A stretch of DNA of 63,942 nucleotides, the filler included, from Ionaspis alba (taxonomy: Eukaryota): assembly GCA_964255285.1 (NCBI GenBank). It is 4 parts of 4 records of this genome, joined end to end, with 100 filler letters (N's around TTAATTAATTAA, not from the genome) between each part and the next. Parts side by side here need not be neighbours in the genome. Positions count along the whole stretch, not along the records: positions 48,971 to 63,942 come from CAXUUL010000391.1; 3 more parts are not named here. One strand, written 5' to 3'. The notes under the pieces are model-generated. The model was given only the letters and a program-made list of their open reading frames with translations. It was not told the DNA's origin and ran no database searches. Numbering within the stretch: the first letter of the stretch is position 1; each line of letters begins with the position of its first letter. A program made the translations under genes and the position numbers. Positions 2,901 through 63,721 of this stretch are shown here, one piece after another.

Positions 2901-4600
2901 CTGCCACTTCAAGCTTGTCCTACCGGCCATTTCACCGAGCCTGCGGCTGGTTGTTGGACGGAGTGAAACAACCCGAGTGGAGGCTTCCCAACAGTATTGG
3001 GAGGAGTCGAAGGTCGCAACCCAGTGCTCATCAACCACAAGAAGACCCAGAAAGCAAAGAGAATTCTAGAATCGGGTCAGCCGCGACAGAAGCTTTGGAA
3101 GCGACAGCAATCGAGAAAGTGAAGCAAGGAGATCAGTATTGCATGAATGGTATAATATAAAAGGTTGTCTACATCGGAAACCCGAATCAGACTCGTCATC
3201 TAGGTGCTCATCATACAATGCAGTGCAGAGGGTACTTCAGAATTGACCTACCATATATACATCCAACGTCGTTGAAGACGAGAGTCAGAAGACACAGCCA
3301 GCAAGGCAGAAACGCTCTGAGCTCGAGCTCAAAGAGCACAGAGAGATGGCTATAAAAAGCAAGTCAGCATATGTTGTGAATCTTCACAGCTGACAGATAA
3401 GATGTGCGAATGTGTGATTCAGTGGGCGAGGTTTTCTAGGCCTGCCACAAAAGGGCATCTCCTGTCATAATATAGTCCCAATTTTTTGTGAGTACTGTCG
3501 GAGCCCAGTGCCATTCATCCTAATAATGCGCGTAGCTTCAAGCAAAGAAACAAGGCTCGTACCTTGTGCATCGAGTTGGTAGGATGCGTCATCGTGGGTG
3601 CCAAGGGTCATTGAATCGACAGAGTATTTATGGGGGATAGTGCTCTGTCAAGATATCGTATTTGTGTGAAGACTGGATCAGCGTAGCGAGTCAGCTAAGA
3701 TATCTCATGATAATCCAATAGAAGAAGTGCAATGTGCTTGAGCTCAGTCTAAGCCATTTGTTGTCGCCAACGACCGTGAAGGTCTCAGTCGGTAATTTCC
3801 AGCGTGTAAAACACGAAATGATCATCTTTGCTCTTTGCTGTAGGGTACATGTGGAAGATCGGAGTGCTTGGAAAGGAAGCTTCCCTACCATGAAAAGGTA
3901 GACAATGTGTCGGTACCACCTCTATTGGCACATATTCCTTCGCCTAGTGTTGACTCAAGCATTTTGTTAAGGTGGGAAGAGCAAGTGGACATCGGTATGG
4001 AATGGTAGGATCGACTGTTGGATGGCCAAGGAAGTATGGCAGGTGGTCGAAGGAGTGTTGACGGGTCACCTACACAACACCCAAGTCAGCAGGAAGCTCA
4101 GGTGGAAGTATTGGAATCGCATCAAGTATTCTAGCATATCAAAGGTGTATCAGACTGACGTATGCAATAAAAGTTTCATGCCTTGAAAGGTCAAAGACTC
4201 TAGTTTTGCGGTTTGAACAAATCATCAGGAGAAGGTAGGAAAAGCGTTGTATAAGAGCTCAAGAGCCATACGTACACTTTGGAATTGTATGCCAATCCGT
4301 CTTGGATCACAATGGGTGACGGAGGGTTTCAACAGAATATCGAGAATTTCTGTGTGATCACTGGCACTAGATGTGAAGAGCTCTAGAAATTTTGGAACAT
4401 CTTAAGTGGATGACACTAGTGGAGTGAAGCTAGATGGGACACGTGACCAAAGCCGGATTGGCCATTCCTGCATGTAGATTCAAAGCGTGCAAATAGACGT
4501 TGACTGCCTTTATCAATGGGTAACCTCCCACCAGGCGTGGTATCAAATGACGTTTCATCATTCAATCGTGATTTCTACATCCTTTAAATTCCGTACTCTA

Positions 4601-16270: not shown

Positions 16271-16370
16271 NNNNNNNNNNNNNNNNNNNNNNNNNNNNNN
16301 NNNNNNNNNNNNNNTTAATTAATTAANNNNNNNNNNNNNNNNNNNNNNNNNNNNNNNNNNNNNNNNNNNN
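16271..16370. other. Assembly gap with TTAATTAATTAA linker
   Basis: N-run containing a six-frame stop linker. The same linker occurs at 32599-32698 and 48871-48970. Confidence 0.97.
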
Positions 16371-32598: not shown

Positions 32599-32698
32599 NN
32601 NNNNNNNNNNNNNNNNNNNNNNNNNNNNNNNNNNNNNNNNNNTTAATTAATTAANNNNNNNNNNNNNNNNNNNNNNNNNNNNNNNNNNNNNNNNNNNN
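32599..32698. other. Assembly gap with linker; truncates a P450 gene
   Basis: N-run plus TTAATTAATTAA. Confidence 0.97.
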
Positions 32699-48870: not shown

Positions 48871-48970
48871 NNNNNNNNNNNNNNNNNNNNNNNNNNNNNN
48901 NNNNNNNNNNNNNNTTAATTAATTAANNNNNNNNNNNNNNNNNNNNNNNNNNNNNNNNNNNNNNNNNNNN
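48871..48970. other. Assembly gap with linker
   Basis: N-run plus TTAATTAATTAA. Confidence 0.97.
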
Positions 48971-49229: not shown

Positions 49230-56539
<7,310 letters not shown>

Positions 56540-56907: not shown

Positions 56908-57618
56908 TCAAATCTCATCAACATCAATCTCCCTATCGTCACTACTCTCATCCCGATCCTCATCGAACTCCACGTTGTCATCCACACCTTCGTGTCCATA
57001 TCTGCGACCCACCTGTCAGTCGTCATCCACCCCAAGCCAAGTCAAGGGCAAACATACGTATCAGTTTCATTAATCTTCGCACTCTCGGGCAGTTCCCCAT
57101 ATGCCTTTAAACTTCTCGCCTCGTCTGCGCTGTATTTGAGAATGACATCTCCCTTCTCGTCTTGATAATCCCGCAACGATAGCAAGATTATGTCACCCTG
57201 GTTGATCCAGACTTTCTTGCGGAGTTTGCCCCGGATGTGGGCGAGGCGCTTTTCACCGTCGAAGCAAAGGGCTTCGAGACGGCCATTACCGAGCATTTTG
57301 ATCACTTGAGCGTATTCTGTTGGTAGATAAGAAAGCGTCAGCGGTGGTGGAACGTTAGGGGAAAGGGGAGGGAATGGGAGCAAAGGAGACCTGCCTTGGC
57401 CTTCTTCTTTGAATGTCAGTTCTCGTTTCTCGTTGTCGTTCTCGTTCTTCCCTCGACGCCTGTTTTTACCTCCCTGTGGAGTGAGAAATGTCAGCTTATG
57501 TCCTGATCTAGGAATGACTAGTGGTGGACCGCGAGTTTTGCGGCGAATGCCTGTGCTCGAGCAGTTGTGGCGTGGAGGGGCGCGATGGAGTTCTTACTTT
57601 CCCCTTATTCTTAGGCAT
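56908..57618 (-). CDS. TIF11: Eukaryotic translation initiation factor 1A
   Basis: [39 protein letters not shown], acidic tail. Intron 2 (57317-57394) is GC-AG. Confidence 0.96.
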
Positions 57619-57633
57619 ATTGAATTAGATCCG

Positions 57634-57733
57634 NNNNNNNNNNNNNNNNNNNNNNNNNNNNNNNNNNNNNNNNNNNNNNNNNNNNNNNNNNNNNNNNNNN
57701 NNNNNNNNNNNNNNNNNNNNNNNNNNNNNNNNN
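57634..57733. other. Assembly gap flanked by a duplicated contig end
   Basis: GGCGCGATGG...TAGATCCG is present on both sides of the N-run. Confidence 0.9.
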
Positions 57734-58142
57734 GGCGCGATGGAGTTCTTACTTTCCCCTTATTCTTAGGCATATTGAATTAGATCCGACCTGAACAGTA
57801 TTGGGAAACCGAGTGATTCGAAGTAGACCTTTGTTGCGAGCTCAAGATCATATGGGTTGTCGTTATGTAGTTGGGTTACTGTTGGTAGTAGTTTTAGTCA
57901 GAAATGTGAAAGGATGGTGGGGTGAAGTTCGGCTCAAGCGACTAACCTCAAGCGGCTAAAGTGAGCTTTCACTAGCGAAAGGTTGTCGATGGTAGAGGCT
58001 TCAAATATTCTTTCCCAGTTTTGCTTGCCTACAATCTTTTACTCATACGAACCTAATGCGCATTCAACCATAAAACAAGCGTGTCAAACTTCACGGTACG
58101 GACGACACTTGATTGCCTAAGGATGGCGATCTCCTCGACGAC

Positions 58143-58661
58143 ATGGTTTTCAAATCAAACGGCGACGTATGGCTCAAAGTCAGCGGTCTGACCATATGTC
58201 GATGTCAGTATTCCCGATACAACCATCCATTACATCTCAGCGAGGCGATCCTTAGAGATCCTGATCACAACTTGTATCTACCCACGAAGCGAAGATACGA
58301 TGAGCGACCCAAAGACACGCTGTGGTGGAGCATCACCTCCAATACCATCAAGGAAAAGAGTGTGGTTAGGTCTTGGGTTGCCAGGCGGATGAGAAGAGCT
58401 TTCACCGAAGCTTTGGAACGGAACGGAATGGACAGCGACGGCCGGCGCAAAGTAGACCATGATATTCACGTTAAGGCTGAGTTCACAGGGCTCATAGGAA
58501 CTTTGCAAATCCTCGCTCTACCACCGGTCGTGACAGCGGACGTTGCGAACGTTCGCAGTCAGATGGACTCTGTTGTACAGCTTCTTGTACGCCAAAACCC
58601 GAAGAGGACGATTGAAGCAGCGGAGCGGAAAGGGTCAACGGACAATTCTCGTGCGAAGTAG
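58143..58661 (+). CDS. Small basic hypothetical protein with RnpA-like (RNase P protein) motif order
   Basis: LWWSITSNTIKEKSVVRSWVARRMRRAFTEAL...GTLQILALPPVVTADVANVRSQMDSVVQLL. The start codon is uncertain (58113 TTG or 58143 ATG). Confidence 0.6.
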   Translation: MVFKSNGDVWLKVSGLTICRCQYSRYNHPLHLSEAILRDPDHNLYLPTKRRYDERPKDTLWWSITSNTIKEKSVVRSWVARRMRRAFTEALERNGMDSDGRRKVDHDIHVKAEFTGLIGTLQILALPPVVTADVANVRSQMDSVVQLLVRQNPKRTIEAAERKGSTDNSRAK

Positions 58662-59862
58662 ACAGTGCCAGGTCAAAGTAGTGATCTCAACTTATTCTGC
58701 CACTGTGGATAGTGTTCAGTCATGACCACTAGTCCGTCAGCGAGGTAGCCGATCGTCGAATATGCCAAGAGAGTGTTCACATCCATACACCCGCTGGCGA
58801 GGAGACAGAAACCTGCAGCGGTCGTACCCGCAAATCGGCAAAGGATGACACCAACAACGTCGTATTCCATCGCAAAGGTTGTTTCCATGCTCTTCAGGAC
58901 CGTTGTACAGCTCTACGTGGACGGCGGCTGGGGCAGAGATTATGATAAGGAGAAACTCTGTATTGGTATGGTTAGATCCATTGGGCTACCATCAGGTTTA
59001 ACACAAATAGCACAGGCAACGGCAAGATATAATAGAGTCTCACTTATCCATAGCAGACTCATTGTGGATAGCTGATTTCATTCTCTCGGCCAGTGTCAAG
59101 CAAATACAATGGTATTGAACTCTTCAGCTAAACGAACATTGTTGCCAACGTTTGGGTGTCGAGATATGTAAACTCAACTAATTCCTGCTGCCTTCCAGAT
59201 GCTGAAACAGCCGTTCAAATGACTCGACTTTAAAGCCGTTCCTGCAGCTTTGTTTTCGTCCGCCGTATGCAATTCAGCTTGCGCTGTTACCTACTCCCTA
59301 CCAGAACTCTTCAGTAGTTGTGTTTCCTTCCTTCTAACTGTTGCTTTTCGTACACTTGCTTCGATGTCTATGATCGGGCCTCCGCTCGTGTTCAGCTTGC
59401 TTCTCCTCACCCTCGTGTCTCAATACCACAAAATACCCGACACTCTTGACAAAGATCTGCCAGAAGAGGTCCTAGGCCTGTCTAAGGTCCATGTGCAGCA
59501 GCTCTTCGACCTTCCAGCTGCATCATCAGATTCCCTTCCACCTCCTGGCATTAGCTCGATACGCCAATCCGTCAGATTTTGCCATTCACGACAAACAGAC
59601 GCGTGTTTCCCCCATCGAGCTAGACAAGGGTATCTACTATATCAAAGCTATAGAGCGTATGTTCGATAGTCCAGAAAGCTGCGATGCTGGTGGGTAGGAA
59701 CGTAGCGCGTTTAAACGTCAACGAATAGGTCTCAGGAAGGGGTAGTGAAATATGCTATGTTCCAGGCCCAGAACCAGTCCCGAGACTTTTAAAGAAAATA
59801 GTCTTCCTGTCATACCAAAGTAATTGTTTGGGCTATTGACTCAGCGAATGGATACTGTCCCA

Positions 59863-59962
59863 NNNNNNNNNNNNNNNNNNNNNNNNNNNNNNNNNNNNNN
59901 NNNNNNNNNNNNNNNNNNNNNNNNNNNNNNNNNNNNNNNNNNNNNNNNNNNNNNNNNNNNNN
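59863..59962. other. Assembly gap flanked by a duplicated contig end
   Basis: 59808-59862 is identical to 59963-60017. Confidence 0.9.
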
Positions 59963-59964
59963 TG

Positions 59965-62025
59965 TCATACCAAAGTAATTGTTTGGGCTATTGACTCAGC
60001 GAATGGATACTGTCCCAAGGAGTCTATCCCAGGGCCTATCCCAGCTCGACGACGCCAATTCCCCATTCCAATCCGCGAGAATCGATCTTTAGGCTCTCCA
60101 TCTGCCTTGCAAAGGACAATAAAACGTACGGCCGACTCGACCGATGAAGTAGAAGTTACGGCCCACTCGACCGACGACACCTTCAACAGGTAGACGCCAT
60201 CGAAGGTAGACAACCGTTTGTCCCAGTAGATATCCACCTCGAACTCTACGCTCGGTTGATCGCCCAAAGCAATCTTGTAGCCTATCTCATTGACTGGAAC
60301 CTCCTCGAACGGCGTAACTATAATGCTGACCACGGCCCCTGGCTCCCATGGTGTCAGATTCTTGAGCGGTTCTATCATGCCCCGGAGGATTATTTCGCAA
60401 GATCCGACATCTCCAGTGGGGTCTAGACTAAGCAGGTCGCATTTGGCTTCTAGAATCTCGAGAGCGACCTTGTCGGTATGATCTATGCAGTAGTACCCGA
60501 TCTCTTCGTTCAACGAAGCCCACGACCAACTTGGCAGGCTGTTTCTAGGCATTGCATTCCGTGCCTTGGGCATGACAAACCACAGTAGATCTAGCGCCAG
60601 ATTATCCCTCCAGAGTCCAGCCATGTACTCCGCGCCTTTCTTCAGCTGTTGGAATTTTTTGGCCAGCCCAGATAAAGCAGGCAATTTGTCTTTCTTATAG
60701 GTCAGACTCTTTGAAGAATAGCCTTGAACGATCACGTGCCAGAACCTGTTGATGTCTGCTGTGATGAGATTGCTGGTTATCAGCGCCTTAGACAAATCCG
60801 CTTTCACAAGACCTTCGCCGTGTCTCGATGTACCACATTCACACTTTGAACACTGCATGCACTCCCAGACGAGCTCATCGCGAGTAAAGTGGAGAACCCT
60901 TGGAGACAACAAGCGCTCCTGGAATACCCATCCCCGGGATAGAAGAGGCAATCTTGGGTCCTCCTCTGGGTCCTGGATTAAGAATGATTCCGCTTGCCAG
61001 AAAAGATCATGCGAAAGGGGCTTCCTCAAGTACAAGTCGAAGCTCTCACTGTCACCATAAGGACAAGGCACCTTAGCGACTGTGAGATCTCGCTCGACGA
61101 ATTGACCAGCCTCGTTGTTCTCTGCGCCTGTTGCAGCAATAGTTATGTATGAGCCCGAGTACACCGAGGCCATCATTGCAGATTCCTTGAGCCAGTCCTC
61201 GGTATCGTTCTGAACGATGCACAATGAGTCGATCCAGAGGTACCTTATCCCTAGCCAGCGCAAGAATGTGATTGCATCCTTGTATGTAGCAGGAAGCTTA
61301 GACCAGGGAATAAGCTTATTATGCCCTCGGATATTCCAAGTCATAGTCTTCACAGCGCATCCGATTGTGCCCCAGCAGTGACTCAAACAAGCATAGCGGA
61401 AGTTTTGTGTCCATGCAGCTAGTAATCGTCAGGTCCACAGGGAAGTAATAAAGAATTACTGAGAGGAAAAAACAATGAGCATACTCCCGGTCATCTTGAT
61501 GTCAGAGGTATTGAATAGTCTAATGTCACGACTACCAATGACGTTTAGGTCCAGCAGTCTGGTCGGCAGTGTTTCCGTTTGAGGCAGACATTTATCATGT
61601 TCATTGTAGCAAGTTTCAAGCCACTGTTGTGCCTGCAGCCAGGACTGAAGCGATCTCGTAGTCGGAGACAAGTTGTTCTTGCGGTCAATGTCATCCCATG
61701 GACATGTGGCTGAAGGTAAACAAAACATATCGAGGGGCATGCGTGTCTTATTTGGGGGGAGGTAAAGACACAGTATGCCACTCAGAGAGACGAGGCATGA
61801 CTCCCGCTGCTCTGAATCAATGACAAAGGTCTCAACAGCAGCTCTGACGACTTTGCATATGATACAGCCTTTCTTCGCTGTATATTCGAACTTTGAAGCC
61901 TTGAAACGACGTTCTCCGTAGTAAGTCATGAGTTGGCGGCACAGTACGCACTGGGACTGTTCGACAAAGTCCGAGTCTGGTAGAAATGTATCTTGAGTTG
62001 ACTTCGTGATCTGAATGCTTGCCAT
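59965..62025 (-). CDS. HET-domain (heterokaryon incompatibility, TOL-like) protein
   Basis: Motifs WLETCYNEH, LPTRLLD, YACLSHCWG, YLWIDSLCIVQ, RGWVFQERLLSPR, DKLPALSGLA, YMAGLW, PSWSWAS. Intron 61419-61484. Confidence 0.94.
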
Positions 62026-62352: not shown

Positions 62353-63721
62353 ATGCTGATCTCCCTTACTGTCGGCAAAGTCGACGCCGGTGTTGCCGTC
62401 CTCCTCACAGAGGACAAACGCTTAGTACGCCTGTCCAATTTCTCGATTGAGCCCCATATCTAATACACTCTCCCAGATCGAATTTCCCTCCATCCTTCTC
62501 CCCTCTTCCATCTCCTCCGGCAGCATAGTCGACATCACCGTCTCCCGCAACCTCTCTTCCGAAGCCTCCGCCCAAAAAGCCTTCTCCATCCTGCAAACCT
62601 CCATCTACAACACCTACGGCCTACACTCCCCCAGCACGCCCCTCCTCCGCTGCCGCAACGCGACCCAAACCTCCGTCGTCCTAGAATGGGATCCCATTTC
62701 CCTCGCCACCGCCTCCATCCGCTCCCTGGCTCTCTACCGTAACGGCTCAAAAGCAGGCAACATCCCCCGTCCTCTCGAACTCACTTCCACCAAGATCTCT
62801 GGCCTTGCTATCGACACCGAGTATGTTTTCCACCTCGTCCTCCGTACCAGCGCCGGTGTCTACACGTCTGAGAAACTGGCTGTCCGCACCCACAAGATGA
62901 CCGACCTCTCCGGCATCACCGTCACGCCGGGCGTGCTACCTCCGCCCTTACGCTACTCCCTCGCTGGTGCTGTTGAGCGAATTGGTGCAAAGATGGTTGA
63001 GAACGTCCGAATTGATACTACGCATTTCGTGTGTACGGAAGGTCGCGGTCCTCAGTGGGAGCGCGCAGTCGAGATGAACATCCCTGTTGTAAGGCCGGAA
63101 TGGGTCGAGGGCTGCGAGCGGGAAGGTCGGATCGTCGGCGTTCGGGGATATTATCTCAATGCCGACCCGAGACTACGGCAGGTGGGTCAAGGAGTTGGAA
63201 TGCAAGGGCAGGCAGGCAGTAGGCGGACAGAGAGCCAGACCAGCATTAAGCGCGTTGCGCCAGCGGTACAAAGTGGAGAGAGCAGCAGACAAGACCTTGG
63301 GCCACCTACAGCGGGGACTGATGCCAGTGGTATAAGCCCCAAGACTGGTGTAGATGGACAGAGCGCAAAGATGGAGACCATGACGGAGCCGCCGACGCCG
63401 CCGGCGAAAGATAGGAAACCGGAGCTAGAAGATGCCAGCAGGGAGAGATTATCGCCGTCAGCAGCAACGGAGCCCTTTCCGTCGGTGGAAGCTACAGCAA
63501 CATCGGTGTCTGTCTCTGAGGACGAGGAAGAGGAAGATAGAAACCAACATAGGGTGGCGCCTCAGGCGAGGAAGCTCGTGCAGTCGCCGTTTGACTCAGC
63601 GCAGACGGAGAACACGGCTCAGGGCTTACCGCTTAGGACGGAGCGAGTGAGGGAGGAGGCTAAGGAGAAGTTGCAGAGGCAGGGAAGTGATGCGGGGAGT
63701 TTTAGTGAGGTCCAGCTTTGA
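62353..63721 (+). CDS. chs5: Chs5 exomer subunit (FN3 + BRCT)
   Basis: MLISLTVGKVDAGVAVLLTEDKRL|IEFPSILLP, TQTSVVLEWDP, HKMTDLSGI, DTTHFVCT, IPVVRPEWV. Intron 62425-62476. Confidence 0.96.

Follow-up and report, generated by a model that had tools for sequence, protein, structure and literature searches.

In a 63,942-nucleotide stretch of DNA from Ionaspis alba (GenBank assembly GCA_964255285.1; hereafter the window), the open reading frame (ORF) at positions 58143..58661 encodes a small basic protein that is very probably a strongly divergent homologue of RnpA (PF00825), the protein of bacterial ribonuclease P (RNase P). By analogy with known RnpA systems we favour, with some reserve, the reading that it serves as protein cofactor to the mitochondrial RNase P of fungi. 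The initial annotation had read the ORF by eye as a nuclear gene for a divergent RnpA of endosymbiont origin serving mitochondrial rnpB, or else for a repurposed RNA-binding protein. The RnpA-like fold and the homology to RnpA were borne out by structure searches, a family member matching PF00825, profile–profile alignment with hhalign and reciprocal hidden Markov model (HMM) searches, while the mitochondrial role and the endosymbiont origin stand as the more tentative part. The window is nuclear DNA from a filamentous ascomycete, and the ORF, found on the plus strand as annotated, is a genuine intron-less nuclear gene belonging to a conserved family. Its start is the first in-frame ATG past a TGA at 58110.

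58143..58661, plus strand: intron-less coding sequence of the Pezizomycotina RnpA-like protein, 172 amino acids plus stop (ORF list, translation)

A word-indexed homologue search with the query protein recovered only the query itself, and the same kind of search with the family alignment recovered only 8 proteins. Word-indexed searching was not sensitive enough for a family that evolves this fast, so it was replaced by an exhaustive phmmer search against 1.84 billion cluster representatives, which yielded 391 homologous proteins at E ≤ 0.001, 73 of them at E ≤ 1e-10. In an alignment of 109 homologues from this search (alignment A1), G119 was invariant and L60, W61, R76, R82, L91, G95 and G100 were conserved in at least 90% of the sequences. 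The family consensus reads ..LWW.V....K.VVRSW..RRLR.AF.EAL..RG.D..G....L.GSL.., and because its near-invariant columns sit in the predicted secondary-structure elements, these elements are not due to chance. The core of about 140 amino acids is strongly basic, with a median isoelectric point of 10.1 (range 8.7–11.3; 105 members) and a value of 9.8 for the query.

Thirty clusters were looked up, nine of which carried an organism name, a small sample biased towards relatives of the query. The closest named relative was from the lichen fungus Xylographa opegraphella (47% identity). Further named members came from Patellaria atrata, Lophium mytilinum, Corynespora cassiicola, Cryomyces (with Oleoguttula), Aspergillus nidulans (XP_681980.1), other Aspergillus, Thermoascus, Pseudogymnoascus and Sarea resinae. 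They span Lecanoromycetes, Eurotiomycetes, Dothideomycetes, Leotiomycetes and Sarea, all within Pezizomycotina; Sordariomycetes were absent from the nine named clusters of this small and biased sample. Every named member was annotated as 'hypothetical' or 'uncharacterized'. One JGI/IMG copy of the A. nidulans-type protein (P0280, in the A. nidulans cluster) bears the name 'methionine aminopeptidase', which is without support from any result and looks like an annotation transfer error.

Contigs of run X1 contained two haplotypes of the locus, at depths of about 48 and 70. In the 160 bases directly before the ATG (57979–58138) the haplotypes differed by 18 substitutions and one indel, whereas within the ORF they differed at three sites (58230, 58259 and 58286), all three synonymous. 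The 600 bases downstream of the ORF were identical, so that the haplotype data are only modest evidence of constraint on the ORF. The promoter or 5' untranslated region at 57979–58138 is a local hot spot of haplotype divergence. Downstream of the ORF, at position 58852, the full-depth X1 contig lacked three bases that are present in the window, a small discrepancy between run and assembly. A spurious ORF in the intergenic DNA between the eIF-1A gene and the HET-domain gene might be suspected, as gene callers offer only 'hypothetical protein'; this explanation is refuted by the 391 homologues with their conserved motifs and columns and by the confident fold prediction described below, the polymorphisms within the ORF are synonymous only, and we give it practically no weight.

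A model of the query was built with AlphaFold2 (AF2) using the 109 homologues, and secondary structure was assigned with DSSP. The model had a predicted local distance difference test score (pLDDT) of 88.1 and a predicted template modelling score (pTM) of 0.80. The A. nidulans orthologue, modelled separately, reached a pLDDT of 84.7. The following elements were assigned in the query:

58167..58214, plus strand: β1–β2, residues 9–24 (strands 9–11 and 19–24), pLDDT about 94; predicted equivalents of RnpA β1–β2
58233..58304, plus strand: two inserted helices, residues 31–54 (helices 31–38 and 45–54), between β2 and β3
58320..58337, plus strand: β3, residues 60–65 (LWWSIT), aligned by hhalign to the RnpA strand ending in ..TVSKK; L60 and W61 near-invariant
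58359..58421, plus strand: basic helix, residues 73–93 (SVVRSWVARRMRRAFTEALER), predicted counterpart of the RnpA helix with the RNR motif
58422..58496, plus strand: variable loop, residues 94–118, pLDDT 72–80, of varying length in the family and a gap relative to RnpA in hhalign
58497..58517, plus strand: β4, residues 119–125 (GTLQILA), aligned by hhalign to the RnpA strand D-x-V-V-I-A-R
58542..58595, plus strand: C-terminal helix, residues 134–151 (VANVRSQMDSVVQLLVR); hhalign pairs query 132–152 with RnpA 96–116
58596..58658, plus strand: basic tail, residues 152–172, pLDDT 60–66, of varying length across the family

All elements recognised by eye in the initial annotation (the strand at 60–65, the helix at 73–93, the 'insertion', now the loop at 94–118, the strand at 119–125 and the helix at 134–151) were present in the AF2 model, which added the strands at 9–11 and 19–24 and the helices at 31–38 and 45–54. 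The bacterial order with which they had been compared, a ..TVSKK strand, an AV.RNRIKR..RE.FR helix, a D.VVIAR strand and a C-terminal helix, was visible in 31 bacterial RnpA sequences. The two inserted helices carry a conserved D-P-x-H-x-L segment (family consensus LxDPxHPL) that is specific to the family, and they lie outside the hhalign match to RnpA. The loop at 94–118 follows a conserved G-x-D-x-x-G turn and exceeds the bacterial RnpA loop in length. In the query model no helix precedes the first strand.

In the predicted models the core of the RnpA fold is kept, namely the four-stranded sheet, the arginine-rich helix between β3 and β4, and the C-terminal helix. The top Foldseek match of the query model in the Protein Data Bank (PDB) was the S. 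aureus RNase P protein 6d1r (E 0.017, probability 0.99, target template modelling score 0.54), and five further RnpA entries from B. subtilis, T. maritima and more S. aureus structures were listed. The remaining rows were GyrB, RNase PH, Lon and EF-G domains, which share the same general fold and had lower probability. VIA-align, which is independent of Foldseek, was run with the query model against 48,161 representative chains and placed T. maritima RnpA at rank 1 (Z 8.4, root-mean-square deviation 2.8 Å, 93 residues aligned), followed by S. aureus RnpA (Z 8.1) and E. coli RnpA (Z 6.5, equal to the Z of the RNase E 5'-sensor domain). With the A. nidulans model, RnpA took ranks 1, 2 and 4 (Z 8.2, 8.0 and 6.8). 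The fold, on which the initial annotation had staked its proposal, thus came out as RnpA-like by AlphaFold with Foldseek and by the search of 48,161 chains. The structural alignments of the query to RnpA began at model residues 3–6 and chain residues 11–18, and across both models the RnpA side began at residues 11–25; sequence identity in these alignments was about 9–14%. The RnpA structures concerned are:

1NZ0, T. maritima
6OV1, 6D1R and 1D6T, S. aureus
1A6F and 4JG4, B. subtilis
2LJP, E. coli

Sequence-based comparisons were made at several levels. PF00825 was the Pfam family most often matched by members of the fungal family (7 of 109 at E ≤ 1). When 149 members were scanned, only the Patellaria protein P0028 scored above the PF00825 gathering threshold of 22.3 bits (22.9 bits, E 9.2e-5), and P0149 fell narrowly under it with 22.0 bits. 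For the bacterial side, an Enterobacterales-only RnpA set (92–98% identity) was useless for building a profile and was therefore replaced by a PF00825 search over 61 Pseudomonadota genomes. All 61 were matched; 30 loci were kept, to which E. coli K-12 was added, and 30 distinct domains were extracted. The hhalign comparison of alignment A1 with these 30 Pseudomonadota RnpA domains gave a score of 31.0 and a P value of 2.5e-4 over 68 columns, pairing query 64–152 with RnpA 49–116. This match spans β3, the RNR helix, β4 and the last helix. None of 200 column-shuffled RnpA profiles reached 31.0 (mean 12.2, standard deviation 2.8, maximum 27.2), and the reversed profile scored 14.7.

The reciprocal HMM searches pointed the same way. 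When the family HMM was searched against 698 six-frame ORFs from 31 bacterial loci, among them 31 RnpA, ranks 1–8 were all RnpA, with a best E of 7.3e-4. The bacterial RnpA HMM, searched against 150 fungal proteins, found P0028 (6.9e-5) and P0149 (2.1e-4). Among language-model neighbours, which we treat as leads only, 16 of the 30 closest atlas clusters and 29 of the 30 closest clusters bearing a name fell in the PF00825 set; they include one from Basidiomycota (score 0.91, PF00825 label on 18% of members) and one from Zoopagomycota (score 0.84, 82%).

Several results speak against a relationship with RnpA or against the mitochondrial role. The query protein alone had no match at E ≤ 10 in Pfam, NCBIfam or PDB sequences, and the family profile returned only chance-level rows from PDB sequences (E 0.18–0.81). 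As no PDB chain was matched by the family profile, no solved mitochondrial complex there holds a recognisable member. The hhalign probability was just 43% with the 30 RnpA domains and 0.5% with the single E. coli RnpA, in which the same RNR region was aligned. Foldseek gave nothing in the PDB at E ≤ 0.001. The RNase E 5'-sensor domain scored Z 7.3 against the A. nidulans model, less than one Z unit from RnpA, and a Z of about 8 is 'middling' on the tool's own scale, so that structure alone identifies an RnpA-like member of the ribosomal-protein-S5-domain-2-like fold and is not proof of homology.

These points would also fit a fungal family of the S5-domain-2-like fold without common ancestry with RnpA, in which convergence and a shared basic composition produce the likeness. 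The highest Z is no more than about 8, a search with the query by itself finds no sequence match, and the RNase E 5' sensor, RNase W, Lon, EF-G domain IV, RNase PH and GHMP kinases score Z 4–7. The RNase E 5'-sensor (4OXP) and RNase W show a similar α/β arrangement (Z 6.5–7.3 and 6.0–6.1, respectively); however, they are domains within large nucleases, gave no sequence-profile signal to the fungal family and ranked under RnpA in both structure searches, in which RnpA chains came first. Tests that use sequence only also single out RnpA: P0028 exceeds the PF00825 gathering score, the hhalign P value of 2.5e-4 was accompanied by no shuffle among 200 reaching the observed score, the top eight of 698 ORFs were all RnpA, and 29 of 30 named atlas neighbours fell in the PF00825 set. 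We regard independent origin as very improbable and homology with bacterial RnpA, at great divergence, as highly probable.

Like the fungal protein, bacterial RnpA is small and very basic, and β3, an arginine-rich helix, β4 and a C-terminal helix follow each other in the same order in both. The hhalign alignment pairs fungal R76, R81/R82, R84 and F87 with E. coli RnpA R62, R67, R70 and F73, though the N and the second R of the RNR motif are not kept, and the arginine-rich RNR-like helix is the most conserved part of the fungal family. The fungal protein differs from bacterial RnpA in the loop of about 25 residues behind the RNR helix and in its disordered basic tail. It is also eukaryotic and nuclear-encoded, and the query fails the Pfam model that recognises bacterial RnpA. 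In RnpA, the N-terminal helix α1 packs on the sheet and helps to form the cleft for the 5' leader, as known from the B. subtilis structure literature.

Nuclear genes for bacterial-type RnpA exist in two other eukaryotic lineages, the prasinophyte algae (Ostreococcus tauri) and the jakobid Andalucia godoyi, beside an organelle-encoded bacterial-like P RNA, the same arrangement as proposed here for the fungal family. The O. tauri RnpA works with P RNA and complements E. coli, according to an excerpt of PMC4919922, and the Andalucia orthologue is described as highly diverged in passages of PMC7050145 and PMC4919922. The prasinophyte and Andalucia proteins show the RnpA domain (COG0594) in standard searches, whereas the fungal family, compared with them by description only, stays below the thresholds. 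In S. cerevisiae, the mitochondrial RNase P protein Rpm2p has the role that we propose for the fungal protein, that of a nuclear-encoded partner of an RNase P RNA encoded in mitochondrial DNA (mtDNA), but it is unrelated to the 172-amino-acid protein in sequence and size. Among named neighbours, those closest in language-model features were fungal clusters of the ESM Atlas labelled PF00825, from Zoopagomycota and Basidiomycota. Unlike the Pezizomycotina family, with which they were compared by language-model score, their proteins are longer (254–286 amino acids) and recognisable by Pfam. The Zoopagomycota and Basidiomycota clusters and the Pezizomycotina family probably form one pan-fungal lineage of RnpA descendants.

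Bacterial RnpA is bound to P RNA close to the catalytic core and makes contact with the leader of the pre-tRNA. We hypothesize that the nuclear-encoded RnpA-like protein is imported into mitochondria, where its arginine-rich helix would bind the mtDNA-encoded RNase P RNA (rnpB) and the protein would help the ribozyme to bind pre-tRNA 5' leaders, acting as the mitochondrial RNase P cofactor in fungi without Rpm2. Localisation, RNA partner and activity are here inferred from the role of RnpA in bacteria and from the two eukaryotic lineages that combine a nuclear RnpA with an organellar P RNA. According to excerpts of PMC3790967, Rpm2 is limited to budding yeasts (Saccharomycetales), mitochondrial RNase P purified from A. 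nidulans contained seven polypeptides of 16–55 kDa that were never identified, the A. nidulans mitochondrial P RNA is near the universal consensus, and the composition of the enzyme is unknown in other fungi, Neurospora included. Protein-only RNase P (PRORP) is missing from fungi, as stated in a passage of PMC10941002. Mitochondrial rnpB has been reported from Aspergillus (excerpt of PMC3790967), Bipolaris and Sclerotinia, which belong to classes where the fungal family occurs, and also from Chrysoporthe, Cryphonectria and the basidiomycete yeast Hannaella; one review called its distribution 'scattered'. Given a basic protein family, an unfilled place for the protein of fungal mitochondrial RNase P and these rnpB reports, a role as mitochondrial RNase P cofactor would be the most economical reading.

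A number of observations count against this role. The RNR motif is altered to R-S-W, with E. coli N63 replaced by S77 and R64 by W78. The fungal models (query and A. nidulans) lack the N-terminal helix of RnpA and have two helices past β2. Neither the query ORF nor the A. nidulans gene model showed a clear cleavable presequence. Ahead of the fold the query has 10 residues (including D8); the family median is 15, and the A. nidulans model has virtually none. Although 84 of 105 members have at most one D or E and at least three K or R among their first 25 residues, this does not discriminate, as the whole protein is basic. The match between the family and mitochondrial rnpB holds at class level only, as taken from papers, and related clusters occur in Basidiomycota, where mitochondrial rnpB is only scattered.

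Much of this would also be expected if the protein descended from RnpA but had given up its service to RNase P and been repurposed as a small basic RNA-binding protein. It might then act, for instance, at a different mitochondrial step of RNA processing or ribosome assembly, or elsewhere in the cell. The R-S-W motif, the loss of the N-terminal helix and the inserted helices suggest changed contacts; the missing clear presequence in the query ORF and the A. nidulans model, and the PF00825-labelled relatives in Basidiomycota with their scattered mitochondrial rnpB, fit repurposing as well. The conserved positions, however, lie on the RNR-like helix and adjoining strands, the part of RnpA that faces P RNA, and the named members come from fungal classes with reported mitochondrial rnpB. 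Outside budding yeasts, moreover, no other candidate for a mitochondrial RNase P protein is known, as far as the excerpts of PMC3790967 extend. We therefore consider repurposing unlikely, though it is the most serious competitor to a role in mitochondrial RNase P.

A further variant is that a pan-fungal RnpA descendant outlived mitochondrial rnpB in some lineages, where its partner would be a nucleus-encoded or unrecognised RNA, or where it would be part of a protein-only activity. This is a speculative and rather improbable extension of the proposal. If true, it would amount to a new RNase P architecture and could settle the identity of mitochondrial RNase P in Neurospora and other such fungi.

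The initial annotation had left prior description of such a protein to the literature. No description of a fungal RnpA homologue was found in full-text literature searches, the scope of which did not extend to subscription-only papers, and the eukaryotes with RnpA that are named in the excerpted parts of reviews are prasinophytes and Andalucia only. Fungal RnpA-like proteins are, however, not wholly unnoticed, since automatic PF00825 labels are already attached to Zoopagomycota and some Basidiomycota proteins. The Pezizomycotina family, judged by its sequence scores, lies below the thresholds of automatic PF00825 annotation. The protein makeup of fungal mitochondrial RNase P outside budding yeasts has been an open question for decades, and the orthologue XP_681980.1 in the tractable A. 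nidulans makes it directly testable. If the proposed role is true, the ancestral bacterial two-subunit RNase P would have survived in fungal mitochondria, Rpm2 would be a late replacement, and RnpA would be able to do without its N-terminal helix and the canonical RNR motif.

Longer forms of the protein were considered and rejected. A longer N-terminus or an upstream exon of the query was discarded, as the in-frame stretch upstream is acidic (PKDGDLLDD) and is closed by the stop at 58110. In the 182-amino-acid form P0151 the start had been called at a TTG, and in a 255-amino-acid model from A. nidulans var. acristatus the extension was not presequence-like. Other genes identified in the window were:

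55721–56536, plus strand: ERCC4/Rad1-type nuclease gene (Pfam)
57045–57296, minus strand: Pfam match of the eIF-1A gene (frame 57042–57593)
59968–61344, minus strand: HET-domain gene (frame 59965–61428), the downstream neighbour of the ORF (PF06985, E 7e-24)
62426–63718, plus strand: CHS5-type gene (Pfam)
3131–3832, minus strand: three C/D-box small nucleolar RNA (snoRNA) genes (snR75, Afu_513 and Afu_300), above Rfam gathering scores

At least one intron seems to interrupt the eIF-1A gene, with the Pfam match of its 3' exon covering profile positions 10–63 only; the upstream part of its frame encodes an N-terminus rich in G, R and K. HET denotes the heterokaryon incompatibility domain. An upstream exon is possible for the HET gene because its stop-to-stop frame runs upstream beyond the first ATG. 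The snoRNA trio is of Aspergillus type, in an arrangement typical for Pezizomycotina.

A scaffold gap of 100 N lies in intergenic DNA upstream of the ORF at 57634–57733. Its flanks, 57591–57633 and 57749–57791, share a stretch of about 43 bases (TTCTTACTTTCCCC...AGATCCG), which has the look of an overlap that the assembly left unclosed, not of a true duplication. Another run of 100 N occupies 59863–59962, just 3' of the end of the HET gene. The N runs at 16271–16370, 32599–32698 and 48871–48970 consist of pairs of 44 N split by 12 bases and follow each other at about 16.3-kb spacing, a regularity that suggests masking or scaffolding, not biology.

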